This document shows positions 1-45,590 of a stretch of 64,000 nucleotides of DNA, in pieces. Under the pieces are notes generated by a model. The model had not been told where the DNA came from, did not search any database, and saw only the letters and a list, made by a program, of their open reading frames with translations. Every line of letters begins with the position of its first letter. The first letter of the stretch is position 1. This stretch comes from Nitrospiria bacterium (GTDB lineage Bacteria; Nitrospirota; Nitrospiria; DASWJH01): positions 4,172-68,171 of the forward strand of contig DASWJH010000048.1 of the NCBI GenBank assembly GCA_036397255.1, given 5' to 3'. A program made the translations under genes and the position numbers.

Positions 1-126
1 GAAAAAGGTATAAAATATTATTTTGCAGTAACAGCTTACGACTTATCCGGGAACGAGAGCGGGTTTTCGGAGGAGAGATCAAAAATAATACAACTAGGAG
101 GAGAATCAAATGAAAAACATAATTAA
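1..126 (+). CDS. 3' end of an upstream gene, truncated by the window edge, whose C-terminus looks like the end of a fibronectin-III-type domain
   Basis: Frame 1 reads ...YYFAVTAYDLSGNESGFSEE... and stops at 124-126. The Y-x-F-x-V-x-A-x-D-x-x-GNES pattern is the typical last beta-strand of an FN3 domain. It overlaps the ATG of the next gene. Confidence 0.4.
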   Translation, partial: EKGIKYYFAVTAYDLSGNESGFSEERSKIIQLGGESNEKHN

Positions 127-1939: not shown

Positions 1940-1979
1940 CTAAATAAATAAAAAATCCTTTAATGCTCAAATTGAGCTA
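1940..1979. terminator. candidate weak bidirectional terminator between convergent genes
   Basis: A short hairpin gctca-aat-tgagc sits at 1965-1977 and overlaps the stop codon of the 1977..2780 gene. A T-run (ttttttatttattt) follows about 10 nt later on the minus strand. The stem is only 5 bp, so this is weak. Confidence 0.2.
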
Positions 1980-14883: not shown

Positions 14884-16521
14884 CTAAAGGGTATTCCGTT
14901 TATAAACCTTGCTTCTATTTTCTCGATTGTCATTAAATACGAGATCAAACTCTTGTTCGATAAAGGAAATTATTTCAGGACCTACATAAGAATCTGATTT
15001 ATAATCTAAAATGACCCAAACTGGACTTTCTGCGTCATCAATAAGTTGCTGAAGCTTGCCAATTGTGTCGATGAGGGGTTTCCCATAGTAAGGTTCATAG
15101 GGTTTTTCAAAGGAGGTAAATCCTTCTTCCCCCTCACCACCGATCTTTTTCTGGCGAAGATAAAAAAATTGATAGTCAGGACCTAAAAAGAATAGACCAT
15201 ACTCGAGGGTTGTTAAAATTATTGGATCATTCGGTTCCACGTGTGAACTCAGATAGTGGTATGAAGGAGCCAGGTTCTGGTTAACCCGCAAATCGTGGTA
15301 ACCGAAGGCCTGCCCTACATATCCCAAAAACGCTCCCGAGGTGTTAATCTTATTTAAGACCACAATTCCCATTGCCATGACCACAAAGATGCTCAGGGTT
15401 GTTAGCAGCAGATATCGTCTGTTAATGAAAACGCTAGCCAAATCTTTGTGTAAGACCCCGTAGCTTTTAACCAACCGCTGACCTTCGAGTTCTTTCTTGC
15501 ACCATAAGGTAAGTGTCCCAATCATCTGAGAGCACGCCAAGATATAAAGGGGAACCCATCCAACAATGATCCTGTGTTGAACGCGATAGGTTAGGAAAGA
15601 TCCAATGATCAATGCCGGCAAAAGGACCACCAGGGGATAATGAAGGCGAAGATCTCCCTTACCGATTATCCAAACAGCCATTATTAAGAAGAATGGCATA
15701 GAAAAGGGTAATAGCTTGTCCAATGCCCGCCAAGGATAAATCAGGTTTCCGATGATCTCCTTTATAGGCATGCCTGCGTGAATCAGAATAGGTTGCCCAA
15801 CACCTGAATGGGCAGTAAAGGATTCGTAAGTCCCAGGAATCTCATAGATCTTGACAAACCAAAAAAACAGACCCCAAATGACAAGTCCAACGTATAACGG
15901 GGTCTCCTTCCACCAACCCGGAATTCGATAAACGAGAAAAGTAAAGGCGAAGATCGGGCCAACCAAGACTCCTGCCTCCGAACTCAGCATAGTTGCAGCC
16001 ATAAAAAAGATCGCCAACCACTTTGATACCACCCTACCCTTGATAAAACCCATATAAAAAAAGTACATGCTTAATGTATAGAAAGCTGCATAGGTAATAT
16101 ACATTCGCCCCGACAACGAAAATTGACTAAACAGAGAAGAAACAGACAGGATCAAAGCAGCCAAAATTGCAATCTGAGGGTTGGAAATTTCTTTTCCAAG
16201 AAGGTAAATGATAAAAATAGTCAATAGACCAAACAGAATTGAATTCAATCTCATCGAAAAATAGTCAATACCGAAAATGCCGATCGGTATCGATAGAAGG
16301 TAGTGGTGAAAGGGAGCACGCGTATAAAGAGAATTGGAGGGAAGATACGGTAACCCTGTCCTGGAAATCGAATCAGCCACCACGGAACTTAATATCTCAT
16401 CGGTATACGTAACGTAATCCCCCACGTAATTGAACTTCCAGAAAGCTGACAAAAATAGAATTAAAAAAAGAAGGAGCGGATATTTTATTCGAAACAAAAA
16501 AGGCCCAAAAGATGAACTCAT
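14884..16521 (-). CDS. GT-C fold membrane glycosyltransferase (ArnT/PMT-like, GT39/GT83 family)
   Basis: The first TM helix is followed by a loop YVTYTDEILSSVVADSISRTG, which resembles the ArnT DE-x-RYAE loop. It then has more than 10 TM helices and a C-terminal soluble domain. Confidence 0.5.
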   Translation of the reverse strand: MSSSFGPFLFRIKYPLLLFLILFLSAFWKFNYVGDYVTYTDEILSSVVADSISRTGLPYLPSNSLYTRAPFHHYLLSIPIGIFGIDYFSMRLNSILFGLLTIFIIYLLGKEISNPQIAILAALILSVSSLFSQFSLSGRMYITYAAFYTLSMYFFYMGFIKGRVVSKWLAIFFMAATMLSSEAGVLVGPIFAFTFLVYRIPGWWKETPLYVGLVIWGLFFWFVKIYEIPGTYESFTAHSGVGQPILIHAGMPIKEIIGNLIYPWRALDKLLPFSMPFFLIMAVWIIGKGDLRLHYPLVVLLPALIIGSFLTYRVQHRIIVGWVPLYILACSQMIGTLTLWCKKELEGQRLVKSYGVLHKDLASVFINRRYLLLTTLSIFVVMAMGIVVLNKINTSGAFLGYVGQAFGYHDLRVNQNLAPSYHYLSSHVEPNDPIILTTLEYGLFFLGPDYQFFYLRQKKIGGEGEEGFTSFEKPYEPYYGKPLIDTIGKLQQLIDDAESPVWVILDYKSDSYVGPEIISFIEQEFDLVFNDNRENRSKVYKRNTL

Positions 16522-16524
16522 AAA

Positions 16525-17922
16525 CTACAGATACCCCAAACTTTCTAGATTTTTCTTAGTTAATTCATCCACTGAAGATTGTTTTTCGTGTTCTATTTTT
16601 TGATTCATCGCTTGCCATTTTAAAAGTTTTTTCTTTAGCTCTGCCGCAATAATCTTTTCCTCACCAATCTTATTGAAACGTTCATCTTTGTCGCGCCCAA
16701 TATCGTACAGCTCTTCTTTTCCACTCTCACTTTTAATAAATTTATGATCGCCTTGCCTAATCATTACCATAGGGTCTTTAAATCGCCGAACCACCTCACT
16801 TGAGTCCGGATTTCCAACCCGCTTCATGATGAAGCTTGGAATTCTCCCTTCCCATTCCGCAATAATAAACTCATGAAAAATTTCCTTGGTTCCTCCCAAG
16901 CTCACCCCTTGGACTTTCTCTGATAACTGTTGATCTAAACCCAATACGTCAATTACCGTAGGGAAAACATCCACTAACTGCACAAGGCTTGACATCCACT
17001 TTCCATTATCTGAGCGTCCAGGATATTTAATTATTAAAGGGATATGGATTATTGGCTCGTATAGGCTAGAAACATGGGAATAAAGATTGTGTTCCCCGAA
17101 GTGTTCGCCATGATCCGCGGTTAGGATAATCATGGTCTCATCATAGATTCCTTCCCGCTTCAAGAAATCTGTGAGTTCGCCTATTTTTTGGTCCAAATAG
17201 TTTATCTCTGCATCATATAGCGCTTTCAATGCTTCAATTTCATTGGAATTCAGTGTCATTTCATCTACAAAATAAATAAGGGGATTATTAGCAACCAGGC
17301 CCACCTTCTTCAGATCGATATTTTGGAGAGAAATGTCTTTCCAATATCGCGCTTTAAAGGCAGATGGGGGATCAAGGGGGTTGTGAGGTTCTATGTAATG
17401 GAGAAACATATAGAAAGGATTATCCCGACTATCCAGGAACGATCGAAAAGCCAGTTGATTGGTTCGATGTGCACCATGGTCGCTAACACCCATGATACCG
17501 GCACCCTTTCTCAATAAAAAATTGATTCCCCTTTGAACCAGTGACGTTGAGGGTTGCCCCTTCCAAATTTCTTGATAAACCTGGTGCCCCTTTTCGAGTC
17601 CGACGAGTTCTCCCACCTGGGAGTTATTAATAAAACCAAAAGTCTTATAACCACACCCCAACAGAACCTGAGCAAGGGTCGGAATGTCACGCCTCAAACG
17701 ATTTTCACCAACAGCCCCATGACTCGAGGGGTATAAACCTGTTAGCAGAGAGGCATGGGCCGGAGGAGTCCACACGGCAGTCGAATATGCTTTCTCATAA
17801 ACGACCCCTTCCCTCCCTAGCTGATCGATGTTAGGGGATGTGGGCCGCTTGTAACCGTAGCAAGTAAGATGGTCGGCTCGTAACGTATCGATAGATATCA
17901 ACAAAACATTTGGACCTTTCAC
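16525..17922 (-). CDS. sulfatase-like protein (alkaline phosphatase superfamily) with a non-canonical nucleophile motif
   Basis: It has NVLLISIDTLRADHLTCYGY (a choline-sulfatase-like start). AYSTAVWTPPAHASLLTGLYPSSHG occupies the place of the canonical AAPVCSPSRAALLTG, so there is no Cys/Ser-x-P-x-R. Later it has ILTADHGEHFGEH. Confidence 0.55.
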   Translation of the reverse strand: MKGPNVLLISIDTLRADHLTCYGYKRPTSPNIDQLGREGVVYEKAYSTAVWTPPAHASLLTGLYPSSHGAVGENRLRRDIPTLAQVLLGCGYKTFGFINNSQVGELVGLEKGHQVYQEIWKGQPSTSLVQRGINFLLRKGAGIMGVSDHGAHRTNQLAFRSFLDSRDNPFYMFLHYIEPHNPLDPPSAFKARYWKDISLQNIDLKKVGLVANNPLIYFVDEMTLNSNEIEALKALYDAEINYLDQKIGELTDFLKREGIYDETMIILTADHGEHFGEHNLYSHVSSLYEPIIHIPLIIKYPGRSDNGKWMSSLVQLVDVFPTVIDVLGLDQQLSEKVQGVSLGGTKEIFHEFIIAEWEGRIPSFIMKRVGNPDSSEVVRRFKDPMVMIRQGDHKFIKSESGKEELYDIGRDKDERFNKIGEEKIIAAELKKKLLKWQAMNQKIEHEKQSSVDELTKKNLESLGYL

Positions 17923-19079
17923 CGTAATTTTCCCTCCAAAATTTGTATGTAGAAATCCTCCATCTTTTTTACCATTTGTTCCAATGAAAAATTATCCTGG
18001 ACCCTTTTTTTACCTTTTTCTCCCATTGCCATTCGAAGGCTAGGATTCTGATAGAGCTGTAATATGGCATTGGCCAACTGGACCGGGTCATTGGGTGGAA
18101 TTAAGATTCCTGTATCCCCCATCACAACCGCTTCCGCGTTCCCACCCACATCAGTGGCAATTATTGGCTTTCCCATAACCATTCCCTCCAAAATAGCATT
18201 TGAAAATCCTTCGTTACTTCTAGGCACAAGACAGACAAGATCCATTAATGCAATGTATCGTTCAACATTTAGAACCGATCCCATAAATTTTACTCGACCT
18301 TCCAAGCCTTTAGTCTTGCATAACGCTTTAAAATTTGCCTCAAGCGGGCCATTTCCAAGGATCAAGACGGCCCATTCTGGAATCTGATTCCGAATTTTAT
18401 CAATAGCAGCAAAAAAAACATCGTAAGCCTTTTCAAATCGGAAATAGGAAATGATTCCGATCACAAATGCTTTTGGAGATATCCCAAGGTTGTTTCGCAA
18501 ATTGAGGATGTCATTCATCTTCACCACTGGGAATTGGTCTAAATCAACACCATTATATATCGTTGTCATTTTTCTCATTGGAATACCCTCGGTTTTGTGC
18601 ATTGCTTTTCCAACTGAATCACATACCATGTTGAAATGATCAACAAATCGGTTCATAAATTTGCATAAAAGAACCTGGTGAGCTTTCTTGAGATCTCCCA
18701 TATCTCTACGGCTTGAAACGATTCTCTTTACTCCCCCAATCTTTGATATGAAGACTCCGTAGGTATCAGATTTAAAATGATAACTCTGAACAATATCAAT
18801 ATGGTAGTGTTTAATAAGACGAAGAAGTTTTAATGCCTGATAAATCGCATGAGGTCCATAAATTCTGCCAACCCGGATGTATTCAACCGGAACACCTACG
18901 CTCCTAATCCTTTCCACAAAGGGACATTCCTCCATATCAAAAGAGCAGATAATGCTATTGAACCGATTCCGATTGAGATGTTTGACCAGATTAGCAATAT
19001 GCGTTTCCGTTCCACCACCGTTCTTGTATGTATCTACGAGAAAGAGAATATTAATTTTTCCACTCTTCTTTGAAACCAT
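17919..19079 (-). CDS. glycosyltransferase family 4
   Basis: It has a GT-B fold and contains PRSNEGFSNAILEGMVMGKPIIATDVGG (E-x7-E). Confidence 0.8.
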   Translation of the reverse strand: MVSKKSGKINILFLVDTYKNGGGTETHIANLVKHLNRNRFNSIICSFDMEECPFVERIRSVGVPVEYIRVGRIYGPHAIYQALKLLRLIKHYHIDIVQSYHFKSDTYGVFISKIGGVKRIVSSRRDMGDLKKAHQVLLCKFMNRFVDHFNMVCDSVGKAMHKTEGIPMRKMTTIYNGVDLDQFPVVKMNDILNLRNNLGISPKAFVIGIISYFRFEKAYDVFFAAIDKIRNQIPEWAVLILGNGPLEANFKALCKTKGLEGRVKFMGSVLNVERYIALMDLVCLVPRSNEGFSNAILEGMVMGKPIIATDVGGNAEAVVMGDTGILIPPNDPVQLANAILQLYQNPSLRMAMGEKGKKRVQDNFSLEQMVKKMEDFYIQILEGKLR

Positions 19080-19087
19080 AATCAGAT

Positions 19088-20851
19088 CTAAATCGTTCCC
19101 AAATTCCCGTTGAGGCGTAAAGCCAAAACTTTCACAGAATTCATGATCTGGGTAAAGCAGGTCTCAAAGATAACATCTTTTTCCAAATCAGGATCAGGAA
19201 CTTCCATTAAGTTATCTTCCGAGAAACACCCTAGAAGAAACGTTTTTTCCATCGAATCTGGATAACGCTGATTCATCATAACCAGGTGCTTAATTTCCAT
19301 CACCAGAATGATATCGGCTTTTCGGACCATTGCATCACTGATCAAAACAGCACGATGAGATTTCACATTCAAACCAATCTCTTTTGCTTTCTTAATCATA
19401 TTTGGATGTGCATTTCGGCCAGAAACAGTATCGAGTCCGGCAGAATCAATGAAAATTGACTCTCTGTTTCTGTCTAGGGCTTGTTCAAGATACCTTGCAG
19501 CAAACGGACTTCGGATCACATTACCTGTACAGACAAAAAGGATTTTTTTAATTTGATCTACTTTTTCAAAGAGGGTCTTGGGGTCCTTTTTTATCTTTTT
19601 CATGCGTCGAAGCTCTCTCATATAAATGATCCTCTTTTTTGCAAAAGCAACCAGGCTCCCCCAAATATTATAAATATCCTGAAAACCGGGCATAGGATCG
19701 GTAAAACTGAACGTATCAGAGCACTCCGTTGGATTCAGAAACCTAAAGGTATCTATTAAAATACGGCTATAGGTTGGGTATTTTATAATTGGATTCTCTG
19801 TTTTTTTTCTAAACAAGACGGTTTTTAACCATTCCAACTCTTTTTCGATGTTTCGACAACGTTTTTCTGTTTTATAGGTCCTGGGAAAATTCCTCCGTTG
19901 ACTAACCATAAATTCATATAAATAATAGGGAAAGTCTGCTCCGGCTGCCACGGCAAGCGGTAGTGAACCCCAAAACCTTCCGTTAATTTCTAACAAATAC
20001 AGGGCTCGGGTCTTGCAATCCCTTTTGAATTCAATCATGGCAATTCCACTCCAGGAAAGGCTTCTCATCAGCCTGGAAACGTATTCTTCTACCTCAGGGA
20101 CAATGGGTTCACTGATGCGGTAAGAACTTGGCCCCCCGCTCAAAGGTACTTCATGGAGCCTTCGGTATTGAAAGGCTGTTTTTATCTTTCCTTCTTCTGC
20201 GAGAACAGCCATCCCAACACCTTCTCCGGTTACGTATTGCTGAATAACCACAGGATTCCATTCGAGCAAAGAAGTGGCTTTTTTTTCTAATTCTCCGAAA
20301 TCAAAGGCGTAGCTAACTGAAAGATCTTTGCCAAAATCTTCGGATATCCAGGACTTTGAGCTGTCCGGTTTAATGACAACAGGAAAAGATAATTCCTCTT
20401 CAATTTTTCTCAAATCCTGAACATTTTTCAGCGTCCATGTGTACGGAACTGGAATCCCGATTGCTTTAGCGAGCTCTCCCGTTCGACTTTTGGAAAGAAC
20501 GATGGCCAGTTTATCATTAGGTGCCATCGCAACGGGAACAATGGCTTCCACTTGATTCCGTATCTTCATGATAGGGCATATCGTAAGATCCGTCACAGGG
20601 ATAATGAGTTCATAAGCATCTTTATGAACATGATCCAATAGTGTTTTTGTAAAACCGGATACGTCAAACAAAGGATCTGGATAAATAAAATGATCGGAGC
20701 AGTATTTGGATTTCGCTGCCAGCGATTTAGGTCTACTTGATCCAACAGACACCGGTATCCCTCTTTTGCCTAGTGAACGGACAATGGCAAGTGCGGATGG
20801 CCATTCTCCATCGAGAACCAAAACTTTTTTCTCTAAAAATGTTTTCGGCAT
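19088..20851 (-). CDS. fusion protein: N-terminal ATP-grasp domain plus C-terminal low-molecular-weight protein-tyrosine phosphatase (Wzb-like)
   Basis: The N-terminal ~420 aa contain FPVVIKP...WSGIAMIEFK, an ATP-grasp B/C-domain signature. The C-terminal ~150 aa contain KILFVCTGNVIRSPFAARY (the C-x5-R P-loop of LMW-PTPs) and MEVPDPDLE (the DP general-acid motif). Confidence 0.65.
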   Translation of the reverse strand: MPKTFLEKKVLVLDGEWPSALAIVRSLGKRGIPVSVGSSRPKSLAAKSKYCSDHFIYPDPLFDVSGFTKTLLDHVHKDAYELIIPVTDLTICPIMKIRNQVEAIVPVAMAPNDKLAIVLSKSRTGELAKAIGIPVPYTWTLKNVQDLRKIEEELSFPVVIKPDSSKSWISEDFGKDLSVSYAFDFGELEKKATSLLEWNPVVIQQYVTGEGVGMAVLAEEGKIKTAFQYRRLHEVPLSGGPSSYRISEPIVPEVEEYVSRLMRSLSWSGIAMIEFKRDCKTRALYLLEINGRFWGSLPLAVAAGADFPYYLYEFMVSQRRNFPRTYKTEKRCRNIEKELEWLKTVLFRKKTENPIIKYPTYSRILIDTFRFLNPTECSDTFSFTDPMPGFQDIYNIWGSLVAFAKKRIIYMRELRRMKKIKKDPKTLFEKVDQIKKILFVCTGNVIRSPFAARYLEQALDRNRESIFIDSAGLDTVSGRNAHPNMIKKAKEIGLNVKSHRAVLISDAMVRKADIILVMEIKHLVMMNQRYPDSMEKTFLLGCFSEDNLMEVPDPDLEKDVIFETCFTQIMNSVKVLALRLNGNLGTI

Positions 20852-20855
20852 AGGA

Positions 20856-21929
20856 TCAGGTTGCTAAGCGAACCACTTTTCTAAAAAGGCTTCCCATCCT
20901 CTCCAATTCATAATCCAGATAATTGCTATAAATATAAAAAGATTGAACTCTTCCGGTTTCATTTGAAAACCGCTTTTTATATTCTTCACTCCCAATGGTA
21001 AAATCAAATGCATCCATTCGCTCTTGAATAGCATAATCCAACAACTCTTTTAAAAGTACCTGCCCGGGGGAATATTTTAAAAAAACCTGATTAAAAGAGG
21101 GGGTATACCAGGTTAATATTCCATTAAAATTAAATCCAAAGTGGTAAGCTAAAGGAATTCCCCCCGAACGTATCACCGAAAAAAGCAACCAGTTGTTGCT
21201 GCCAAGATTTTCCACAAGCCTTAAAAAGAAACGTCTTGATTTTTCATTTAGGAATTGACTAGGAGTACGAGAAGACTTCCAGCGTGAGATATGCTGCTCG
21301 AAAAAAGAATTCAAATGTGTCTCAATTTTAGCTGGGTCAAATAAATGGTCAACCTCATAACTCCCTTGTTTTCTGAAATGATTTTGTCTCCTCCTAAGGC
21401 TCTTCTTTCTAAGCACCCGTTTTACCTCATTGTCATAGTTATTGATCACCAGTTTGTGGGAATTAGAATACTTCACAAAAAACTTACCGCGCATGTGTCT
21501 GGAACAGGCTCCTATGAGTATCTTGCTTAAAACGGAGTTTTCAGTAATCCCTGTAAGCTTAAGACAATCCCAACGATTTCTATTTTCAAAAAGGAATTCA
21601 ATCATCAAGGGAATTATATTCTCACAACTTTCGTTTGTGATAAAGTTACAATAATCCGAAGTGCCAGAACCTATGAATTCAACAATTCTTTTTCGAGCAA
21701 GGATAGTATCCTGGCAAGTAATCATCAAAGGGGCAATTCCCACAACTTCCCCATCTTCCTTTGCAACAATTACAAAAAGTTCACGGTCATCCCCAAATAC
21801 CTCCCACCAGGCTTGATGCCACTCGTAGGTTTGGAAGATTGTGTTTAATCCGCTCTTTTGTGCCAATCTATTCCAAATCAATTTTTCAGGATTGATCTGA
21901 TCAAACCGATTGATTAAACAAATTTCCAT
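20856..21929 (-). CDS. FemAB-like/GNAT-fold acyltransferase (the PEP-CTERM-locus-associated FemAB-related family)
   Basis: It is about 350 aa, has no signal peptide, and has a C-terminal GNAT-like block (LLKELLDYAIQERMDAFDF). Its position next to a deacetylase and the exosortase-locus core matches the known FemAB-related family of these loci. Confidence 0.45.
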   Translation of the reverse strand: MEICLINRFDQINPEKLIWNRLAQKSGLNTIFQTYEWHQAWWEVFGDDRELFVIVAKEDGEVVGIAPLMITCQDTILARKRIVEFIGSGTSDYCNFITNESCENIIPLMIEFLFENRNRWDCLKLTGITENSVLSKILIGACSRHMRGKFFVKYSNSHKLVINNYDNEVKRVLRKKSLRRRQNHFRKQGSYEVDHLFDPAKIETHLNSFFEQHISRWKSSRTPSQFLNEKSRRFFLRLVENLGSNNWLLFSVIRSGGIPLAYHFGFNFNGILTWYTPSFNQVFLKYSPGQVLLKELLDYAIQERMDAFDFTIGSEEYKKRFSNETGRVQSFYIYSNYLDYELERMGSLFRKVVRLAT

Positions 21930-22955
21930 TTAGGGGATCAAGCTTGAATTTTTAAAGTGGTAGGATAATCCTGAAACGAGGCATTTAAATCGCGCAGGAC
22001 TGATATCGGCACCGATAGAAACTCTTTTTAGTTCGAACAAATCTTCAGATCGATCATTTAGACCCGGAATGGTCGTCAATGCACAATCTACTTGGGATTT
22101 TTTCAATTGTTCTTTTACATAGTCCGTAAAGTCGATCTTCCTTCCATTGGGGTAAGCAAAAAATTGGCAACTTTTTCCGCAATGATGCTCAATCGTTTCA
22201 CAAGACTCCTTGATTTCCTTCACGGCATCTGAGGGGTCCATTTGACTTAAGATATTATGGGTAGCCGTATGGGAGCCGAATTCAATCAAACCATAATTAC
22301 TTAAAAATTTTATATCATCCCAAGACATCAGATCAAAATCTGAATCTCTTGAAATCGAATGAATTTTCAAATGATCGATTATTTCTTCTAAAATGAGGTC
22401 CTTTTCATGGCGTGGTAACATTTTTAAGTATTCAGCAATTTCTTGATTTGCCATTTCCTTTTCAATGGGTAAACGAAGAGAATAATATGGCAGGCCCCAT
22501 TTGGTTAGATCAATCCCCTGCTTAGAAGTGTGTTTAATAGCAAGGTATAAACGATCGGGCCAACAATGGACTTGGTCTGACACACACCTTGTCGCCAAAA
22601 AAATTACCGCTGGGATATGGTACTGGCTTAATATGGGATAAGCAATCGTATAGTTATTGCGATATCCATCATCAAAAGTGACCACGGCTGTGTAATCCGG
22701 AAGGGGTTTCCCATTTCGCATTTTTTCGATTAGCTCTGAAAGTTTTAAGACCGAATAATTCTTTTTAAGATATGAAATTTGAAACCTAAATTTTTTCTCA
22801 GGAAGCTGAGTCCAACAAAAAGGCTCAAGGGACTGTCTCACAACCCCGTGATACATCAAAATTAAAATTTTTTTCCTGTTTAGCCATCTGAAGTATCGCG
22901 TCAACCCAAAAATGTCACAAAAATAAAAAAATACTTCTTTAAGGATCTTCCTCAT
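21930..22955 (-). CDS. polysaccharide deacetylase family protein
   Basis: AVVTFDDGYRNNYTIAYPIL is the NodB TFDDG motif. It has a C-terminal extension. Confidence 0.7.
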   Translation of the reverse strand: MRKILKEVFFYFCDIFGLTRYFRWLNRKKILILMYHGVVRQSLEPFCWTQLPEKKFRFQISYLKKNYSVLKLSELIEKMRNGKPLPDYTAVVTFDDGYRNNYTIAYPILSQYHIPAVIFLATRCVSDQVHCWPDRLYLAIKHTSKQGIDLTKWGLPYYSLRLPIEKEMANQEIAEYLKMLPRHEKDLILEEIIDHLKIHSISRDSDFDLMSWDDIKFLSNYGLIEFGSHTATHNILSQMDPSDAVKEIKESCETIEHHCGKSCQFFAYPNGRKIDFTDYVKEQLKKSQVDCALTTIPGLNDRSEDLFELKRVSIGADISPARFKCLVSGLSYHFKNSSLIP

Positions 22956-22990
22956 AAAAAAATCTCATCTAAACGCAGAGCTAGTCCCAC

Positions 22991-24133
22991 TTACTTGCTT
23001 CCATGGTCATCCACACCCCATTCAACACCACAAATCGTGTAAGACTCTCCTTCTCTCCTCCAATTTTTAATTATCTGAGACAAACGTTTGGTTAATCGAT
23101 GTAGGGCCAGACGGTAGGCCGGAGATAATAGCCATTGATTTCGCATACTGTGAGAAAGACTTAGTATTTCCCCTAATGCTTGTCGAATTTCAAGAAGGCT
23201 GACAAGCGGTATATCTTGTTTTCGAATCTTCGTTCCATAGCTTGACAAAAACAGACTTTGTAAACTCCTGATGGTTCCAACCCTAACTAAGGGATTCCAA
23301 CAGTAGTTATCCAAGGCATGTAACATGGTGATGACATCTCGATAAATCGGTCCTTTCCTAAAATCTGCAAAATCCAGCACCGTCACGTTACGGTCTCCAA
23401 CCAGAATATTCGACGGAATAAAGTCCGAATGCATTCCAGATATGGGTATGTCATAACACACCTCTGAAGCCACCCGTTCCACGTGCTCTCTTACCTGATC
23501 GGATATCTGCCCACTAAGGAAACCCCTTTCTCGTGCATTTGTCACTTGTGCATGGATATCGATTACCGTTTCAGAATGACTGTAAGGACGCCCATTAATC
23601 CGATTGGACTCTTTCTGGAAATGGCTTAACCATCTGCCAGAAAATTGACAATACTGCTCGATTTGTGTAATTGACCTAAATCCAAAATGAAAACGGGTGC
23701 CATGTTTAAGGATATGGCTGAAGGCCTGGCCGGAGAATTCCTCAGTAACAATGGCTTGCAGATCCTCAAAACAAGCGATGGGAAAGATAACATCGAACTC
23801 CACTAATCGATGATTTTGTTCATTTAGAGCCTTGAGAACCCTATATTCTCTAGCCATTTTTTCATAACCCAGTTTCTGATCTGGGAATTGAAAGATCTTG
23901 ACGAAGTAATTACGGCCAGTGCTTCCATTGCATAGGTTAACCTTCAGTACAAGGGATCGGGGCCTGCAGATGGTATTCAATCTTTCAATAGTGGGAATCG
24001 AGTCTAAACCGAATATCTCTTTGTAATTCTTCCTAATACGTTCGAATACGGCGTCAACGATTTTTTGAAAATCTTTTTTAGTCTTCCTGGTGGCTTGCTT
24101 TTCCACCTTACTCAAGGATACGCTCGATGGCAT
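22991..24133 (-). CDS. protein-kinase-like-fold phosphotransferase (APH/choline-kinase family)
   Basis: GMHSDFIPSNILVGDRNVTVLDFADF contains the catalytic HxD...N loop and a DF(A) metal-binding motif characteristic of aminoglycoside/choline kinase-like enzymes. Confidence 0.55.
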   Translation of the reverse strand: MPSSVSLSKVEKQATRKTKKDFQKIVDAVFERIRKNYKEIFGLDSIPTIERLNTICRPRSLVLKVNLCNGSTGRNYFVKIFQFPDQKLGYEKMAREYRVLKALNEQNHRLVEFDVIFPIACFEDLQAIVTEEFSGQAFSHILKHGTRFHFGFRSITQIEQYCQFSGRWLSHFQKESNRINGRPYSHSETVIDIHAQVTNARERGFLSGQISDQVREHVERVASEVCYDIPISGMHSDFIPSNILVGDRNVTVLDFADFRKGPIYRDVITMLHALDNYCWNPLVRVGTIRSLQSLFLSSYGTKIRKQDIPLVSLLEIRQALGEILSLSHSMRNQWLLSPAYRLALHRLTKRLSQIIKNWRREGESYTICGVEWGVDDHGSK

Positions 24134-25109
24134 AGTCCTTTACTTTCCTTGCATGAGTAAAAATGATTATTTCACCCAGAAGACCAATAGAAAATAACTG
24201 AACTCCCAAAACGATAAGCAATACACCGAGGACTAGAATAGGTCGGTCAGCGATGGCGCCGTGTCCTAGGATCCGGTCTGCTCCCAAGTAAACAATGATC
24301 ATTCCTCCAATTCCCACCAGACCCGATCCCAGCAACCCAAAGAACCGCAAGGGTTTTTTCGTGAATTTGAATAGAAAGAATAGTGTTAGGATATCCAGTA
24401 GCCTTCTGATATAGATTCCGGGTTTAAAAATCCTCCGCTTTTTATCATAGGCGCTTTGCTTTACGCAAACCTCTGCCACCCGAAATCCTCTCTCGTAACT
24501 CAATAAGGGTAGAAATCGATGGAGGTCTCCGTAAAGAGGGACTTCTTCGACAACTTTTCTCTTTATCGCTCGAAGTCCGCAACTCAGGTCATGATAGGTT
24601 CTCCCCGTCAGTAACTGGGTTAGCCGATGAAAGATCCAAGATTGTATCCGGTTGAAAAAGGAATCAATACGAGGAAATCTCCTGGAAATGGCAAGATCAT
24701 AATTTTCTTGAAAAACCTTATTCAAAATTCGATCGATTTCTTCGGGTTCAACTTGAAAATAGGAGGATATTGTCATTATAACGGGTGCCCTTGAAACCTC
24801 AAAACCCACCGATAACGCTGTTGCTTCTCCAAAAGATCGACTTAAGGAAACGATTTTGATATTTTGATACGTTTTTTTCAAATCATTCAATACACCGATA
24901 ACATTCAAATAGGATCCATCCACAACAAAAATAAATTCAAAGGCTTTTCCATATGCTGAAAGCTTTCGTGCGTATTGGACGTAAATTTCTCGAAGATCGT
25001 CAATCCGTTCAGTAACAGGGACCACGACCGAAATATCGATTGCAACATCCGATGTTTTTTCACTATCCAATTCTTTTATTTCCTTGTTTATCATTCTTTG
25101 TTGTTCCAT
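24108..25109 (-). CDS. family-2 glycosyltransferase (polyprenyl-phosphate glycosyltransferase-like, DPM1/GtrB type) with C-terminal TM helices
   Basis: ISVVVPVTERIDDL...FVVDGS, then two C-terminal TM helices. Confidence 0.65.
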   Translation of the reverse strand: MEQQRMINKEIKELDSEKTSDVAIDISVVVPVTERIDDLREIYVQYARKLSAYGKAFEFIFVVDGSYLNVIGVLNDLKKTYQNIKIVSLSRSFGEATALSVGFEVSRAPVIMTISSYFQVEPEEIDRILNKVFQENYDLAISRRFPRIDSFFNRIQSWIFHRLTQLLTGRTYHDLSCGLRAIKRKVVEEVPLYGDLHRFLPLLSYERGFRVAEVCVKQSAYDKKRRIFKPGIYIRRLLDILTLFFLFKFTKKPLRFFGLLGSGLVGIGGMIIVYLGADRILGHGAIADRPILVLGVLLIVLGVQLFSIGLLGEIIIFTHARKVKDYAIERILE

Positions 25110-25115
25110 ATTTAT

Positions 25116-26159
25116 CTATTGAACCACCATGGTTGGCTTAATACCCCTTTCAGGCCAATTATCCCCCATTTTCACCGAAAGTTCTCCTATAATTCCCATC
25201 GCAAAGAGATGGGCACTTAAGGATAACAGAAGAAAACTGACCGTTGATAAAATCAACCAACCGTCGATTTGTTCACCCAGAAACATGCCCATTCCTAAAA
25301 AGACTGCGATGAAGGCTAAAAGGGTGAAGGGTACGCTTAAGAAACCAAACCAAAGCGCCGGACGAGAAGAAAAACTTATAATCATTTTTACGGTAATAAT
25401 ATCGAGAACCACCCTCCAGGTTCTCCCAATCCCATATTTGCTCTTTCCAAAATGTCGTGGATGGTGATTGACCACAATCTCTGAAATTCTCGCTCCGGTT
25501 AGTGTCGACATGGCAGGGATAAATCGGTGCATCTCATTATAAAGCGTTACATTTTTAATCACAGAACCGCGGAAAGCTTTTAAGGAACAGCCATTATCAT
25601 GGATTTTTACTCCCGTTACGCTACTAATAATCCAATTGGCAATCATTGAGGGTAATAAGCGGCTCCAAAATTTATCCTGCCGCCTTTTCCGCCAACCGCA
25701 GACGACGTCATATCCTTCTTCAATCTTATCCAGGAGCCGGGGAATATCAGAGGGGTCGTTCTGGAGATCTCCATCCATACTCACAATGATCTTTCCCCGC
25801 GCCAATTCGAACCCTGCTGCCATGGCAGAGGTTTGCCCGTAATTCTTTCTGAACTTGATGATCCGAATCCTTTGATCTTTAAGCTGCATTTCGGTTAGCA
25901 ATCTAAATGTCTTATCCTGGCTTCCATCATCGATAAATACGATTTCATATTGGAGGGCTAACCCATCACAAATATTTTTTATGGAAGAATACAACTCTAA
26001 AATCGATTCCTCTTCATTCATTACTGGAATCACAATTGAAAGGTCTATTTTCCAATCAAGGTCCGATGCCGTTTTTTCAAGTTTTTGAAACCGCATATTT
26101 TCTAAGATCTTATTTGGTTTAGGTAGATACAGTCCGGAATCTTTGGATAATAATACCAA
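25116..26159 (-). CDS. family-2 glycosyltransferase (ArnC/GtrB-like undecaprenyl-phosphate sugar transferase)
   Basis: LSIVIPVMNEEESI...FIDDGSQDKT...VSMDGDLQNDP (the DxD motif), then C-terminal TM helices. The true start may be the internal Met at about 26096, which would remove the 41-nt overlap with the upstream gene. Confidence 0.7.
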   Translation of the reverse strand: MVLLSKDSGLYLPKPNKILENMRFQKLEKTASDLDWKIDLSIVIPVMNEEESILELYSSIKNICDGLALQYEIVFIDDGSQDKTFRLLTEMQLKDQRIRIIKFRKNYGQTSAMAAGFELARGKIIVSMDGDLQNDPSDIPRLLDKIEEGYDVVCGWRKRRQDKFWSRLLPSMIANWIISSVTGVKIHDNGCSLKAFRGSVIKNVTLYNEMHRFIPAMSTLTGARISEIVVNHHPRHFGKSKYGIGRTWRVVLDIITVKMIISFSSRPALWFGFLSVPFTLLAFIAVFLGMGMFLGEQIDGWLILSTVSFLLLSLSAHLFAMGIIGELSVKMGDNWPERGIKPTMVVQ

Positions 26160-27252
26160 GAAACGTACCGATTCCGTTATTGATCACGTCCATCAGCGAT
26201 GAAATTCTAACCAACGAGTAATACTGGAGGTACTCCATGCAAAGGGAAAAAAAAACCCCTAAAATTAAAACCGACACCATTTTAATCCCTGAATCATTAT
26301 TTGCAAATACCGTTGCAGCATAAGCCAAATAACCCAATGGAATAAAGAGAACAATATTGATAAGTATATCCGTTAACTGCTTCCATGAGAGGTTAAAGTT
26401 TTGGAAAGGATGCATAAGGAATACCTGATTGGTAATCTCTGGTCCGGTAAGAATTTGAGTTTGAATGAACGGTTTCACCCCACTCTTATCCATGATGACC
26501 TCTCCCTTTCTTTGATCAAACAAATATAACGTAGTAATTCCATCCATGACTCGACCTGAAGGACCATTTCCGGGAATTCCTTTTAAAGATTCTGCACGAT
26601 AATTTTGAACCACCTCTTGTTCTGATAAGGCTCGATTGTATAGAGCGACTAAAAATATCTTTCCGACCCATGGGCGATTGCCTGTCCCTTCATTCCCAAT
26701 CAATAAAGGGAAAGTCGGATTCCAATTGGAGAAATCACCACTCAGGGCAGTCGATGAATCACGAAGCTGCCCATCCACATAAATTTTTTCTTTAAAAAAG
26801 TCATATGTAACGGCAATATGCTGAGGATGATTGGAATCCAATACATCTTCCACTCTCCATTCGGGATTTTTCCCATTGAGATTCGTCTTTGTTGTTCTTA
26901 ATCTAACAATAAGATCTCTTCCTTCCTGGCCTATGGTAAAATTTCTTCTAACCTTATTAGCGGAATAGCTTATAATTCGAGCGGGTCCTTTTTGATTTAA
27001 ATGCTTGGTCGTTATCCAAAACTCTAAGGTTATCCCCGAACCTGTCTTCATTGCGTTATATAACTTCTCCGCGGATGAGGAGGATCTAATCCCTGCCGTC
27101 CCTCTAATTTCCATCCCTCTTGACTGCTCAAGCCATTGAATCTCACTTTTCAAGATGGGAAGGTGGAGATCAAAAGGGGATAATAATAAAACAAAAAGTA
27201 CAACAAGGTATAAAGTTGAGAGTGTGAAATACTTGACTCGTTGTTCTCTCAT
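26119..27252 (-). CDS. membrane protein with a LamG/ConA-like jelly-roll domain and a C-terminal VanZ-like domain
   Basis: It has an N-terminal TM helix. The middle region has KIFLVALYNRALSEQEVVQNY, typical of LamG domains. The C-terminal 4-TM block IVLFIPLGYLAYAATVF...VLILGVFFSLCMEYLQ resembles VanZ. Confidence 0.4.
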   Translation of the reverse strand: MREQRVKYFTLSTLYLVVLFVLLLSPFDLHLPILKSEIQWLEQSRGMEIRGTAGIRSSSSAEKLYNAMKTGSGITLEFWITTKHLNQKGPARIISYSANKVRRNFTIGQEGRDLIVRLRTTKTNLNGKNPEWRVEDVLDSNHPQHIAVTYDFFKEKIYVDGQLRDSSTALSGDFSNWNPTFPLLIGNEGTGNRPWVGKIFLVALYNRALSEQEVVQNYRAESLKGIPGNGPSGRVMDGITTLYLFDQRKGEVIMDKSGVKPFIQTQILTGPEITNQVFLMHPFQNFNLSWKQLTDILINIVLFIPLGYLAYAATVFANNDSGIKMVSVLILGVFFSLCMEYLQYYSLVRISSLMDVINNGIGTFLGIIIQRFRTVST

Positions 27253-27315
27253 CTCGTTTGGTTAGTTTTTTTCATGCTGAGTCAACACAATTAATCCCCT
27301 CTTTCCAGGTCTCCT

Positions 27316-28479
27316 TTATTTCATAACGCGAACTGTTTTTTTGAGTTCCTGAAGTGTAATATTTGCACTCCGCTCCCAATTAAAAAAGGTCGACCGATCC
27401 AAACTTTTTTTCCTTAACCCTATCCTGAAATCTTCGTTGGTTAACACGTTAACCATTTTTTGCGAAAAATCCTCTGGTTTTTTTGGATCTGCAAGGACTG
27501 CGGCACCTCCACCAATCTCCGGACAAGCCCCGGTCTTTGATGCAATAACAGGACAACCACAGCTCATGGCTTCGACCATTGCCATTGCATAACTTTCATA
27601 AAAAGATGGAATAACAAATAGACTGGCAAGATTATAAAGTTTAGGAATTTCTTTGTGAGGGACAAACCCAATAAAATGAACCCCTTCTAGCTCATCCCGG
27701 GTCCAACCCGTATGGAGAAGATATTCTTTCACATTTCGACCTGCGATTACGAGCTTGTGGGGATATTCATGACGCGATAGAAGGTATGCTCGGATAATTG
27801 TCTCAACATTCTTTCCTCCATAATAGGTTGGATTTTCATTTCCCACATGATCCACTCGAGTAACCCCAAGGATAAATCTTTCCGGAAGCTGATATTTTTC
27901 TCGAAAAGATTCAAGCAAGCCTGGTTCATGGATCGGCCGAAAATATTCCCGCGGAGCAGGATATGTAACAACTGCTTTATTGAACGATAATCCTATATAT
28001 TTTCGATTCTCCTCAATTATAAAATTGGAGATTGCAAACAAGACAGATGCTTTTCGACAATACAAGGGGAGCATTGTTTTAATATAGGCAATGTCCCACC
28101 ATTCATAATGCTCAGGCCACGCCCACCAGGCGGGCTCATGAATTCCCATTGCCACAGGACAATGACTGATTAGGGGGACACTAAATTTTTCGTTATATAT
28201 AATATCGGCTCCTTCCCTCCACGCCCGATAGGGAACGGCAATCTGATCCCAGAGGAACTTTTGGGGAGCATGAACAAGAATTTCCTTAGTATTTCGATAG
28301 GAAGAAAAGCGCCCAAACCACTTTGAGGACCTATATAAAAGCAGGTAAGTGTTCTCCTGGTCTATTTCCAACATATTCTCGATTAGGCCTTCTATAATTG
28401 CCCGGTGTCCACTATCTTGATCCATTGCACGCATCATTATCGCTATTTTCATTGAATAACCATTTTCAACTAAATCCAC
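27316..28479 (-). CDS. glycosyltransferase family 4
   Basis: PSFYESYAMAMVEAMSCGCPVIASKTGACPEIGG (E-x7-E). Confidence 0.75.
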   Translation of the reverse strand: MDLVENGYSMKIAIMMRAMDQDSGHRAIIEGLIENMLEIDQENTYLLLYRSSKWFGRFSSYRNTKEILVHAPQKFLWDQIAVPYRAWREGADIIYNEKFSVPLISHCPVAMGIHEPAWWAWPEHYEWWDIAYIKTMLPLYCRKASVLFAISNFIIEENRKYIGLSFNKAVVTYPAPREYFRPIHEPGLLESFREKYQLPERFILGVTRVDHVGNENPTYYGGKNVETIIRAYLLSRHEYPHKLVIAGRNVKEYLLHTGWTRDELEGVHFIGFVPHKEIPKLYNLASLFVIPSFYESYAMAMVEAMSCGCPVIASKTGACPEIGGGAAVLADPKKPEDFSQKMVNVLTNEDFRIGLRKKSLDRSTFFNWERSANITLQELKKTVRVMK

Positions 28480-29631
28480 CTACTGTGTTTCAGGATAGTA
28501 TGCGGAATGACGAGCCTTAACGTTAGGCCTCTTTAAGAGAAGACTAAAAAAAGTTTTTGGCAAGGCTTGATTTTGCCCTGATACGATTAGATTTTTGTTG
28601 GGTTTTCTTCTCAGGTTCATCTTTTTAATTTGATGCATGCTGGACTTTAACAATTCAATTGGGAGGTAGATAAAGGCCAATAGCTTTTTATTAAAGGCAA
28701 TAGATGAAAACTCATACCCATATTCTCTCATGAGAAAACCAGTTAATTTTTGAATGATGAATATCTTTGACCGTGACAATACTTTTTCCCCCTTCCGGAT
28801 AGATTGGGTGTTTACCCTTTTTAAAGTTCCCTTTTTCCAAGGTTCATTTTTAAAATAATTAGTAGATGTCTTATAGAATTCCAACATGGTTTCGGAATAT
28901 TCCTCTCCCACAAACCTGCATAATCTTTCCATCTCCTCTTTAGGGTGTTGAGTTAAATCCTCATACCGAACTTCAATATAGGATTCTTCTCTATTGGAAA
29001 AATGATTACCCAAAACAATATCACTTGCCCAAGAAAGAGCATGTATAATGATATCCTTTGAGGCATCTGGCATTTTCAAACTGGAGGCCACAACATCCCT
29101 GGGGTCCCGGATAATATGAATAACCTTGGCATTAGGAAATATTCTAAAAAGTTGATCAATATGCCTCACATTCCCTGGTGTTTTTTCCCCAAACCTGGTT
29201 GCCCCCTTTATTTTTGCGTACTCCTCGAGAAGAATCCTATAGAATCCCTCATAAGTTCTCGACTTGATCACTAGCATTCTATCTTTAACCCCCGAAAGAA
29301 TTTCCTCAATACCCGGCAAAAACTGGAACGCTCGAATTCTTCTCACAAAAGAAAAAAATTTTTCCAAATCTTCATCCCTACTCATTGAAGGTATGAATCG
29401 CTTGATTTGCAAAATTTGGTCAAAATAATGAATCTCCCCAAAAATAGCAATTTTGGGATGGGCATTGATTATGAGCTGCAACATGGTTGTGCCTGACCTT
29501 GCGGCTCCTACGACAAAAATTGGAAAACAGTCTTGAAAGCCTTCTTGAATATTTTTATTATTATTCATTGATAAGGAAAATCTTTTAATTTCTAAAAAAG
29601 AATCCTGATTTAAAGCATGGTGGTTTCTCAT
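28480..29631 (-). CDS. PAPS-dependent sulfotransferase
   Basis: FPIFVVGAARSGTTMLQ is the 5'-PSB P-loop-like motif, and VIHIIRDPRDVVAS is the 3'-PB motif. Both are sulfotransferase hallmarks. Confidence 0.7.
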   Translation of the reverse strand: MRNHHALNQDSFLEIKRFSLSMNNNKNIQEGFQDCFPIFVVGAARSGTTMLQLIINAHPKIAIFGEIHYFDQILQIKRFIPSMSRDEDLEKFFSFVRRIRAFQFLPGIEEILSGVKDRMLVIKSRTYEGFYRILLEEYAKIKGATRFGEKTPGNVRHIDQLFRIFPNAKVIHIIRDPRDVVASSLKMPDASKDIIIHALSWASDIVLGNHFSNREESYIEVRYEDLTQHPKEEMERLCRFVGEEYSETMLEFYKTSTNYFKNEPWKKGTLKRVNTQSIRKGEKVLSRSKIFIIQKLTGFLMREYGYEFSSIAFNKKLLAFIYLPIELLKSSMHQIKKMNLRRKPNKNLIVSGQNQALPKTFFSLLLKRPNVKARHSAYYPETQ

Positions 29632-29652
29632 TACAAGCAGGGTAAGAAAACG

Positions 29653-30633
29653 CTACACGTTCTCTTCCGTAACCTGTCGAGGAGGACGAAAACTGCCGCT
29701 CCCAAGGACGTAGGCCAACCACCAAGGAATCCAGGATAATATTTGGACCACCCGACCGATAAGCGTAATGGCAAGGGCTTCTGCGGGAGGAACTCCAACC
29801 ATTGACATGAATACCATAAAAGTAGCATCAAAGACCCCTAGCCCATTGATGGCAATCGGAATCCTTGTAATCAAAAGAGTTAAAGGTACAATTCCAGCAA
29901 TATAAACAAGACCGATGTCAACACCAATCGCCTTGGCAATTAGCCACGCATGAAGGATTGGAAGAAACTGCTCGCCAAATGTTAGTGAAGAAAATTTAAA
30001 AAGGGTTGTTTTATCATTTTGATATTCCCGATAGATCATGTGAAACTTGGTAATCTTTTTTAAGAGCCACGATTCCCTGAAGGACCCCAAAATTCTCTCC
30101 CTAATAAAATCAAAAACGGTTTGGCTAAAAGACATCGCAAAACCAAAGGTTGATAATAGAAGAAATAATCCTCCCACCCACCATACCGACTGGAATCGAT
30201 CATCAAGAGCCCCTGATATCGTAAGAATCGAAAACCCTATCAAGCCGACCAAGAGTGCAGAGAGAAAACCGATCATCCGTTCAATAATAATTGAAGCAAT
30301 AACCTCATTGGATTTTAATCCAATTCGTGTCGTGCTATAAGCTCTAATTGCATCTGCACCCACTGTGGCAGGAAGAAAAATACCCCAAACCATCGATGCG
30401 CAATAAATATTCATTCCCTTAACGAAAGGAAGAAAAATACCCCTTCCCTTTAATAACAATTTCCACTTAAAAGTCATAATGGCTCGATCAATCGTATTCA
30501 CCCCGAATACCAATAAAAGGTAGATTGGATTGGGTGTCATAATCATCCGCCCGAGTTCGCTTACTCCCCCTAATTTCCATAGGATTAACACGAACAAAGT
30601 AATTGTTACCGCAGCTTTTAAAAATAATTTCAT
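29653..30633 (-). CDS. flippase-like membrane protein (LPG-synthase-TM/UPF0104 family)
   Basis: It is 326 aa with about 8 TM helices, is Gly/Ala-rich, and begins with a short basic N-terminus. This architecture is commonly found beside GT2 genes. Confidence 0.45.
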   Translation of the reverse strand: MKLFLKAAVTITLFVLILWKLGGVSELGRMIMTPNPIYLLLVFGVNTIDRAIMTFKWKLLLKGRGIFLPFVKGMNIYCASMVWGIFLPATVGADAIRAYSTTRIGLKSNEVIASIIIERMIGFLSALLVGLIGFSILTISGALDDRFQSVWWVGGLFLLLSTFGFAMSFSQTVFDFIRERILGSFRESWLLKKITKFHMIYREYQNDKTTLFKFSSLTFGEQFLPILHAWLIAKAIGVDIGLVYIAGIVPLTLLITRIPIAINGLGVFDATFMVFMSMVGVPPAEALAITLIGRVVQILSWIPWWLAYVLGSGSFRPPRQVTEENV

Positions 30634-30675
30634 CCTTTAATTACTAAAACCCTCCAATAAAACCAATATAAATGT

Positions 30676-32280: not shown

Positions 32281-32295
32281 CTTTTTTCAAAAACT

Positions 32296-32961: not shown

Positions 32962-33033
32962 CTGAAAAAATTTAATTTCCGTTCATCATGGAATTTACTG
33001 ACCTCATTATAAAGGAGCATATTTTCTGATTTC

Positions 33034-45569: not shown

Positions 45570-45590
45570 TAGAACATTCCCTTCCTGTGG

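Follow-up and report, generated by a model that had tools for sequence, protein, structure and literature searches.

A predicted ArnC-like lipid-sugar synthase, its DXD-less paralogue and an ArnT-like GT-C protein in an exosortase exopolysaccharide locus of a Nitrospiria bacterium

Does a bacterial exopolysaccharide (EPS) locus that relies on Wzx and Wzy also encode a second, lipid-linked glycosylation route that acts on the periplasmic face of the membrane? The question is raised by 64,000 nucleotides of DNA (hereafter, the window) from a metagenome-assembled genome of a Nitrospiria bacterium (GenBank assembly GCA_036397255.1, contig DASWJH010000048.1, positions 4,172 to 68,171), which is a complete XrtA/PEP-CTERM-type, Wzx/Wzy-dependent EPS locus. 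A first-pass annotation of the window had picked out two GT2 enzymes resembling DPM1 and ArnC, a GT-C membrane transferase resembling ArnT and the protein O-mannosyltransferases (PMTs), and a UPF0104 flippase-like protein, and had read them together as the parts of one Gtr/Arn-type system for branching the EPS after polymerization. In this report, we found that all four open reading frames (ORFs) are indeed present, all on the minus strand, with strong matches to their families in hidden-Markov-model (HMM) searches. One of the two GT2 proteins, here called GT2a (25116-26096), is predicted to be a lipid-sugar synthase; the other, GT2' (24108-25109), has lost the aspartates of the DXD motif and is probably a partner of GT2a rather than a second enzyme. 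The GT-C protein (14884-16521) could use the product of GT2a, and the UPF0104 protein (29653-30633) most likely serves a separate step.

GT2a matches Glycos_transf_2 (PF00535) with 116 bits against a cut-off of 23.3. Its maximal ORF (25116-26159) has a TTG start and encodes 347 amino acids, but on identical metagenome contigs the gene has been called from an inner ATG at 26096, and this is the likely start of the 326-residue protein. In sequence searches of the Protein Data Bank (PDB), ArnC (E 4.7e-50), GtrB (1e-40) and DPMS (4e-21) are its matches. The best NCBIfam models for both GT2 proteins are ArnC, PgfS and AglJ, matched over their full length; GT2a scores 192 bits on the ArnC model and 159 bits on the PgfS model, both below the equivalog cut-offs. 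As the ArnC cut-off (NF007986) is 529 bits, GT2a is not ArnC proper. Both proteins align with ArnC from about residue 10 to residue 295 or 314 of its 322, a span that takes in the GT-A domain, the juxtamembrane helices and two C-terminal transmembrane helices. This full-length ArnC-type architecture argues against a GT2 of the processive-synthase type, the alternative against which the first-pass annotation had asked to be judged; neither protein groups with such synthases, their best matches being ArnC, GtrB and DPMS.

The structures of ArnC and GtrB assign roles to individual residues, namely the contacts to Mn2+ and uridine diphosphate and those to undecaprenyl phosphate (Und-P); within the DXD motif, the second aspartate is a metal ligand and the first has been proposed as the catalytic base (bioRxiv 10.1101/2025.01.29.634835, PMC12698845). 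In GT2a the motif is intact (DGDLQN), and DXDLQ is kept in 64 of 66 orthologues. ArnC residues N77, D100, D102, Q104, R128, R137, R205, S210 and K211 have their counterparts in 63-66 of these 66 proteins, with both lipid-phosphate arginines, R128 and R137, present in every copy (66/66 each, MAFFT alignment). By its sequence, then, GT2a is a bona fide protein of the polyprenyl-phosphate-sugar-synthase type, and not a processive synthase.

The second GT2 protein has the same architecture and a different active site. GT2' (24108-25109, minus strand, 333 amino acids) is encoded 6 nt downstream of GT2a, to which it is 29% identical. It matches Glycos_transf_2 with 58 bits and the NCBIfam ArnC model with 116 bits (equivalog cut-off 529), and its residues 26-332 align over their full length with residues 10-314 of ArnC (PDB 9hwj, E 8e-31). 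The 25 best PDB matches of its AlphaFold model are all ArnC, GtrB or DPMS. Where ArnC has DADLQNPP (D100-A-D102-L-Q104), GT2' has SSYFQVEP (S115-S-Y117-F-Q119). This loss is a property of the family: the 120 database homologues closest to GT2' (55-87% identity) are all without a DXD motif and share the motif x[SPA][SAP]Y[FI]QVEP, and neither aspartate occurs in any of 66 copies from species genomes, which have P, A or S and Y, F or H at these positions.

Other parts of the site have been retained. Among the 66 genome copies, GT2' keeps equivalents of D48, Q104, R128, R131, D133 and R137; by MAFFT, R128 is found in 66/66 and R137 in 56/66, although HMMER instead places N153/R154 at the R137 position. 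There is no conservation of N77 or of the R205/S210/K211 region; the mapping of the latter depends on the alignment, for HMMER and MAFFT differ there, but the loss of D100 and D102 holds in every alignment. The mean column identity of the family is 70% across phyla, which indicates strong constraint. A protein that lacks both the metal-binding and the proposed catalytic aspartate is very unlikely to transfer sugar from a nucleotide by the mechanism of this family. Thus, GT2' is probably a non-catalytic partner, and of the two enzymes proposed at first, GT2a stands as canonical and the product of 24108-25109 does not.

How general is this arrangement? A profile scan for GT2' over one genome per GTDB species found 326 relatives, and the 80 best loci were taken for neighborhood counts, made on unfiltered ORFs. 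These loci belong to Nitrospirota, Poribacteria, Gammaproteobacteria, Acidobacteriota, delta-proteobacterial lineages, Fibrobacteria, Omnitrophota and Tectomicrobia. Among the carriers of the pair that can be cultured are Methylonatrum kenyense AMT 1, Virgifigura deserti SYSU D60014 and Nitrospira sp. T9. A GT2a orthologue with an intact DXD motif lies immediately upstream of GT2' in 78 of the 80, across at least eight phyla. The exceptions are L045, at a contig edge, and L091; L058, likewise at a contig edge, also lacks a GT2a match. The pairing was kept in all of the metagenome contigs that we inspected. Two families are the commonest just downstream of the pair: a FemAB-like Acetyltransf_6 gene follows GT2' at position +1 in 13 loci, and a membrane GT2 of about 390 amino acids, similar to PgaC and ceramide glucosyltransferases, is found in 22 loci. 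Genes of the deacetylase family occur at +2 to +8. That an ArnC-like synthase is paired so strictly, and across so broad a phylogenetic range, with a paralogue lacking the DXD motif is, we consider, new.

ArnC and GtrB are homotetramers in which the second transmembrane helix and the C-terminal hairpin touch the neighboring protomer (bioRxiv 10.1101/2025.01.29.634835, PMC12698845). Taken together with the constant pairing, these contacts make a GT2a/GT2' hetero-oligomer the simplest reading, and a complex with a non-catalytic, lipid-binding subunit is the most likely one. In such a complex, GT2' would contribute the ArnC/GtrB architecture, the tetramer-forming transmembrane and C-terminal parts and the lipid-phosphate arginines, the DXD motif and nucleotide contacts having been lost. 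We suggest more tentatively, and with somewhat less than an even chance of being right, that the tandem is an obligate heteromeric polyprenyl-phosphate glycosyltransferase, kept in exosortase-type EPS loci of at least eight phyla and composed of a catalytic subunit and a pseudo-glycosyltransferase that still binds Und-P or its sugar adduct. The pseudo-enzyme may feed substrate, hand off product or aid translocation. The last of these roles would explain the missing GtrA-type flippase: no GtrA domain was detected in any scanned ORF of the window, which has no intergenic gap longer than about 415 nt and only one Wzx. In the literature that we searched, no paired active and inactive polyprenyl-phosphate glycosyltransferases, and no inactive or pseudo-glycosyltransferase partner of such an enzyme, are described. 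The small protein GacJ is said to be the nearest precedent for an accessory subunit of a synthase.

What could use the lipid-linked sugar? The GT-C gene (14884-16521, minus strand) encodes 545 amino acids and matches the PMT_2 family (PF13231, residues 68-220) with 55.5 bits against a cut-off of 26.1; NCBI annotates the identical protein as a GT39 family member of a Nitrospiria bacterium. A phmmer search of the PDB gave no match. The AlphaFold model (pLDDT 86.7, pTM 0.87), which has a C-terminal periplasmic alpha/beta domain at about residues 400-545, finds ArnT (5ezm) as its best match in the PDB by Foldseek, over the full length (E 2.4e-11, TM-score 0.58), followed by AglB, STT3, PglB, ALG9, DPY19 and PMT; PimE and AftB are also among its structural relatives. 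Model and Foldseek matches thus support a GT-C(A) fold. Residues D41-E42 lie in the first periplasmic loop, right after the first transmembrane helix (6-32), and are the same in all of 27 aligned homologues, some of them distant PMT_2 proteins; R91 and R139-M140-Y141 are likewise invariant. The protein as modelled therefore has an ArnT-like fold with an invariant DE loop, as the first-pass annotation had proposed, and the conserved loop, on whose absence that proposal would have foundered, is there in the alignment.

The likeness to ArnT is one of fold; in sequence the protein is a generic PMT_2 member. A profile of its own family reached ArnT with an E-value of only 0.038, no ArnT match was obtained in NCBIfam, and the match to the Agl23 model TIGR03663 is weak (23 bits against a cut-off of 126). 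The family is small, with 24 close homologues. Its orthologues sit in exosortase EPS loci, adjoining Wzx in L005 and L007; the member in L008 lies outside an EPS locus. In the literature that we searched, nothing relevant was found on the combination of an exosortase with a GT-C or ArnT protein. The fixed position of the gene beside Wzx and Wzy in EPS loci suggests that the acceptor is the EPS itself or its repeat unit linked to undecaprenyl diphosphate (Und-PP).

The same protein might, however, glycosylate proteins. PMT_2 belongs to the protein-O-mannosyltransferase superfamily, oligosaccharyltransferases (OSTs), PMTs and DPY19 are among the structural matches, and the locus is one for exosortase-dependent protein sorting, so a PMT-like enzyme could decorate PEP-CTERM or other secreted proteins, and not a polysaccharide, from a donor made by GT2a. 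The score of GT2a on the PgfS model fits this idea as well, for the PgfS-type GT2 and GT-C systems of streptococci reportedly glycosylate proteins. Against it, the best structural match is ArnT and not a PMT or an OST, and the gene is fixed beside Wzx and Wzy rather than beside PEP-CTERM substrates, no gene for which was recognized anywhere in the window. Nor did we find, on reading the GT-C sequence (no formal test was made), a WWDYG-type OST motif; for this reason, and on account of the ArnT match, OST-like en bloc transfer was also set aside. We regard the glycosylation of proteins by this enzyme as quite unlikely.

Is there a connection between the GT-C protein and the GT2 pair? Both are encoded in one operon of the window, 8 genes apart. 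Elsewhere, a PMT_2 GT-C protein with a DE-type motif is encoded within 10 kb of the pair in 28 of the 80 loci and directly adjacent to it in 13. These 13 cases comprise at least four arrangements or size classes and are distributed over Nitrospirales, other Nitrospirota and Gammaproteobacteria. Further, orthologues of the window's own GT-C protein share a contig with GT2' orthologues in three of the five GT-C contigs examined. The recurrent direct adjacency supports a route from the synthase to the GT-C protein, the hallmark of three-component periplasmic glycosylation (PMC11127046).

The flippase that such a route needs had been sought in the UPF0104 protein (29653-30633, minus strand, 326 amino acids), a candidate lipid flippase of the LPG_synthase_TM (PplT, MprF-flippase-like) type. 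Its family membership is clear: it matches PF03706 with 109.6 bits against 33.4 (profile positions 4-295 of 302) and TIGR00374 with 73.3 against 43.2; by sequence it has no match in the PDB. UPF0104/PplT proteins are predicted flippases for several classes of lipid, and they accompany GT4 enzymes and deacetylases in the glycolipid systems GpgSDF and HexSDF (PMC12713373). In the papers that we consulted, flippase activity is described as demonstrated only for the MprF domain, and as predicted for GpgF (PMC12713373) and AglD (PMC5898192). Fusions of PplT with a GT-B enzyme have been reported in Nitrospirae.

The neighbors of the UPF0104 gene point away from GT2a. A metagenome profile scan with UPF0104 orthologues gave 80 loci, of which 60 had usable flanks for counting. 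In 31 of the 60, an orthologue (400-590 bits) of the window's GT4 (GT-B) glycosyltransferase (27316-28479, minus strand; Glycos_transf_1, 89 bits) lies within about 2 kb on the same strand, and in 10 an AsnB amidotransferase of the XrtA type is directly adjacent. An ArnC-like GT2 stands directly beside UPF0104 in none of the 60. In the window, a sulfotransferase gene (28480-29631, minus strand; Sulfotransfer_3, 123.5 bits) that falls outside the lipid-linked route lies between UPF0104 and GT4. Because its conserved neighbor is the GT4 enzyme, the UPF0104 protein more probably moves the lipid-linked product of that enzyme than the product of GT2a, to judge from this genomic evidence; together, UPF0104 and GT4 most likely constitute a separate lipid-linked step. 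The UPF0104, GT4 and AsnB amidotransferase genes (27316-35591 in the window), often with YdjM and a carbamoyltransferase, recur in many metagenomic EPS loci (L092-L171), and we recognize them as a second conserved module of exosortase loci, which is new.

These counts bear on the original proposal that all of the parts form a single three-component system, in which UPF0104 would flip the Und-P-linked sugar and the GT-C protein would add a side branch to the EPS after its polymerization. Several facts speak for it. All of the parts lie in one co-directional operon, and, as the window has no gene of GtrA size and one Wzx, UPF0104 is its only spare flippase-like protein. In archaea, UPF0104 proteins are fused to, or encoded next to, AglD-type GT2 enzymes, beside PMT/STT3-like enzymes (PMC5898192), and the GT-C protein does match the archaeal Agl23 model, if weakly. 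From the side of the pair, UPF0104 is found within 10 kb in 11 of 80 loci and directly adjacent in two (L077 and L085). The proposal is nevertheless unlikely, given the neighbors that UPF0104 orthologues do and do not have, the absence of a DXD motif from one of its two enzymes, and a searched literature in which the flipping of polyprenyl-phosphate sugars by this family is only predicted. Of the Gtr/Arn-type parts list, the synthase and the GT-C protein thus hold up, supported by their adjacency elsewhere; a second active GT2 enzyme and the proposed flippase role of UPF0104 are not supported, clear as the family of the latter is.

The coupling of GT4 and UPF0104 also admits an analogy with the lipoglycans of mycobacteria, the phosphatidylinositol mannosides and lipomannan: GT4 would make a glycolipid at the cytoplasmic face, UPF0104 would flip this acceptor and not the donor, and the GT-C protein would extend it on the outside with the polyprenyl-phosphate sugar made by GT2a. 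Glycolipid systems composed of GT4 and UPF0104 are already known (PMC12713373), and PimE and AftB are structural relatives of the GT-C protein. Moreover, of the 24 longer UPF0104 loci, 12 have the GT2 pair, and eight a GT-C gene, within 10 kb. Still, this idea is pure analogy, and GT4 enzymes abound in every EPS locus, where they usually act on repeat units linked to Und-PP. We consider it very unlikely.

The explanation that we prefer combines these elements as follows. At the cytoplasmic face, GT2a would move a sugar from its nucleotide to Und-P; fold and motifs are evident, and the activity on such a sugar is predicted. It would do so in a hetero-oligomer with GT2' as the non-catalytic subunit. 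Some further component would flip the lipid-linked sugar, and at the periplasmic face the ArnT-like GT-C protein would, by the mechanism of its family, transfer the sugar to an acceptor, most likely the Und-PP-linked repeat or the nascent EPS. UPF0104 would act with GT4. As a whole, this scheme has in our judgment about an even chance of being correct.

Several observations weigh against it. No GT-C gene is found within 10 kb in 52 of the 80 pair loci, so that a GT-C gene close by is no fixed companion of the pair, and in the window itself the two lie 8 genes apart. The GT-C proteins adjacent to the pair elsewhere belong mostly to a longer PMT_2 subfamily (600-700 amino acids, as against 545 in the window). 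GT-C genes are about as frequent near UPF0104 orthologues (8 of the 24 longer loci) as near the pair; what sets the two apart is direct adjacency alone. As UPF0104 does adjoin the pair in two loci, it may yet act as the flippase of Und-P-linked sugars. Finally, GT2' could be catalytic by a metal-independent mechanism, as it keeps Q104, D48 and an invariant E/P after the motif. A further view would be that the parts are unrelated passengers of a large EPS operon, in which the GT-C protein draws on some other donor while the lipid-sugar of the pair goes, for example, to lipid A or to another target in the envelope. The many pair loci without a nearby GT-C gene, and the GT-C orthologue of L008 outside any EPS locus, agree with that view. 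Against it stand the direct adjacency of pair and GT-C in several lineages and their sharing of an operon in the window and of contigs in its relatives, and we believe it to be highly improbable.

The scheme resembles known systems without coinciding with any of them. Three-component systems consist of a lipid-sugar synthase, a flippase and a GT-C transferase (PMC11127046). Like GtrA/GtrB/Gtr* of Shigella and Salmonella, GacI/J/K/L of streptococci and the pentofuranose systems of Citrobacter (PMC11127046), the window has a GtrB/ArnC-type synthase and a GT-C protein in a Wzx/Wzy locus, and the expected logic of a lipid-linked donor, its flipping and an extracytoplasmic transfer is shared. Unlike them, it has no gene for a GtrA/SMR-type flippase or a second flippase of the MOP/MATE type, its synthase is accompanied by an obligate DXD-less paralogue, and its components are spread over 16 kb. 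Archaeal AglD/Agl23-type modules (PMC5898192) bring the same three protein families together, but the window is bacterial, its families are unfused, UPF0104 does not adjoin a GT2 gene, and the Agl23 score is far below the cut-off. With the glycolipid systems GpgS/GpgD/GpgF of Pseudomonas aeruginosa (PMC12713373), HexSDF of Clostridioides difficile and the PplT-GT-B fusions, the window shares a UPF0104/PplT protein with a neighboring GT-B (GT4) enzyme and deacetylases nearby. Its GT4 enzyme, however, scores no more than 33 bits against the GlcN-PG synthase model, and its GT4 and UPF0104 genes are part of an XrtA EPS operon in which an AsnB-type amidotransferase gene adjoins them.

The comparison with the Arn pathway (ArnC, ArnD, ArnE/F and ArnT), which adds aminoarabinose to lipid A, is of a similar kind. 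ArnC is the best match of GT2a and ArnT the best structural match of the GT-C protein, and the operon has a gene of the polysaccharide-deacetylase family (compare ArnD) and an fmt/ArnA-like formyltransferase gene (1977-2780). Yet GT2a falls far short of the ArnC cut-off, the sequence match of the GT-C protein to ArnT is marginal, the window is without genes for ArnE/F, ArnB or the ArnA dehydrogenase, and the context is that of EPS and exosortase, not of lipid A modification. The formyltransferase gene overlaps that of a PgaC-like membrane GT2 (2756-3913) directly downstream of exosortase/EpsI, and this group of genes (1977-3913) is found again in L007 (6694-8630). The deacetylase gene (21930-22955, minus strand, assigned by Pfam) was considered as an ArnD-like deformylase and rejected, since its NCBIfam matches are of the PgaB/IcaB type and N-terminal only. 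Formyltransferase, GT2a, deacetylase and ArnT-like GT-C protein make up an Arn-pathway-like list of parts, possibly a sign of an N-formylated amino sugar.

The operon that houses these genes is about 55 kb long, tightly packed on the minus strand, and occupies almost the entire window. Its EPS core consists of an EpsB_2 initiating phosphoglycosyltransferase, a chain-length determinant, a tyrosine kinase, Wza and an outer-membrane protein. It also holds the deacetylase and amidotransferase of the XrtA system, the exosortase with EpsI, one Wzx, one Wzy, many GT4 enzymes, a set of genes for sulfate activation and sulfotransfer, and an RfaH-like antiterminator. The Wzx (MOP-family) flippase (13331-14860, minus strand; Polysacc_synt_3 and Polysacc_synt in Pfam), the sole one of the window, is encoded directly downstream of the GT-C gene. 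It is followed by the Wzy-type polymerase or O-antigen-ligase-like protein (11991-13334, minus strand), which matches Wzy_C with 73 bits and, below the cut-off, TIGR03097 (PEP_O_lig_1) with 69 bits.

Several further genes surround the GT2 pair. Immediately upstream of GT2a lies the gene of a LamG_3-VanZ fusion membrane protein (26119-27252, minus strand; Laminin_G_3, a concanavalin-like lectin domain, 77 bits; VanZ, 50 bits), a position kept only in the close relatives L005 and L030. On the other side, an APH-family kinase-like gene (22991-24133), whose product weakly matches the sugar kinase AmgK, shares 26 nt with the end of GT2'. Genes of the APH-like kind occur near GT-C and Wzx also in L006, L007 and L009. 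A FemAB-like Acetyltransf_6 gene (20856-21929, minus strand, Pfam) follows the deacetylase gene. Next to it, a gene of 587 codons (19088-20851) encodes a fusion of an ATP-grasp ligase with a Wzb-like low-molecular-weight phosphotyrosine phosphatase, which is kept in L001-L004 and, in L013, L014 and L032 (297-317 bits), is encoded close to the GT2 pair. L005 is without this fusion, and its FemAB-like gene is instead fused to a GT4 gene.

The sulfation genes (9901-11130, 16525-17922, 28480-29631 and 44214-47546) encode CysD, a CysN-like GTPase without an obvious adenosine-5'-phosphosulfate (APS) kinase domain, a sulfotransferase, two sulfatase-family proteins and a type I phosphodiesterase of the NPP family. 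No APS kinase was identified in the window, and one was seen in the related locus L010. This tool-kit points to a sulfated EPS. The operon also encloses the gene of the RfaH/UpxY-like transcription antiterminator (47679-48203), upstream of the genes for sulfate activation and for the glycosyltransferases, and L009 has a NusG-family gene at a similar place. On the opposite strand, an ORF of 599 codons (110-1909, plus strand) has a C-terminal choice-of-anchor Q domain as its sole match.

A periplasmic, lipid-linked glycosylation route is in itself of a known kind, and to meet it in an EPS locus is no surprise. Glycosylation outside the cytoplasm, with polyprenyl-phosphate sugars as donors, is well established as a means by which bacteria diversify their surface glycans. 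Its occurrence in the XrtA/PEP-CTERM EPS loci of Nitrospirota and of many other environmental phyla would extend the range of this chemistry to the polymers that make up the matrix of nitrifying and floc-forming communities. Recent cryo-electron-microscopy work on ArnC and GtrB provides a framework within which the GT2a/GT2' pair can be probed. If the pair is hetero-oligomeric, it would represent a novel structural or regulatory arrangement among the GtrB/ArnC-type enzymes, whose structures to date are all homotetramers.

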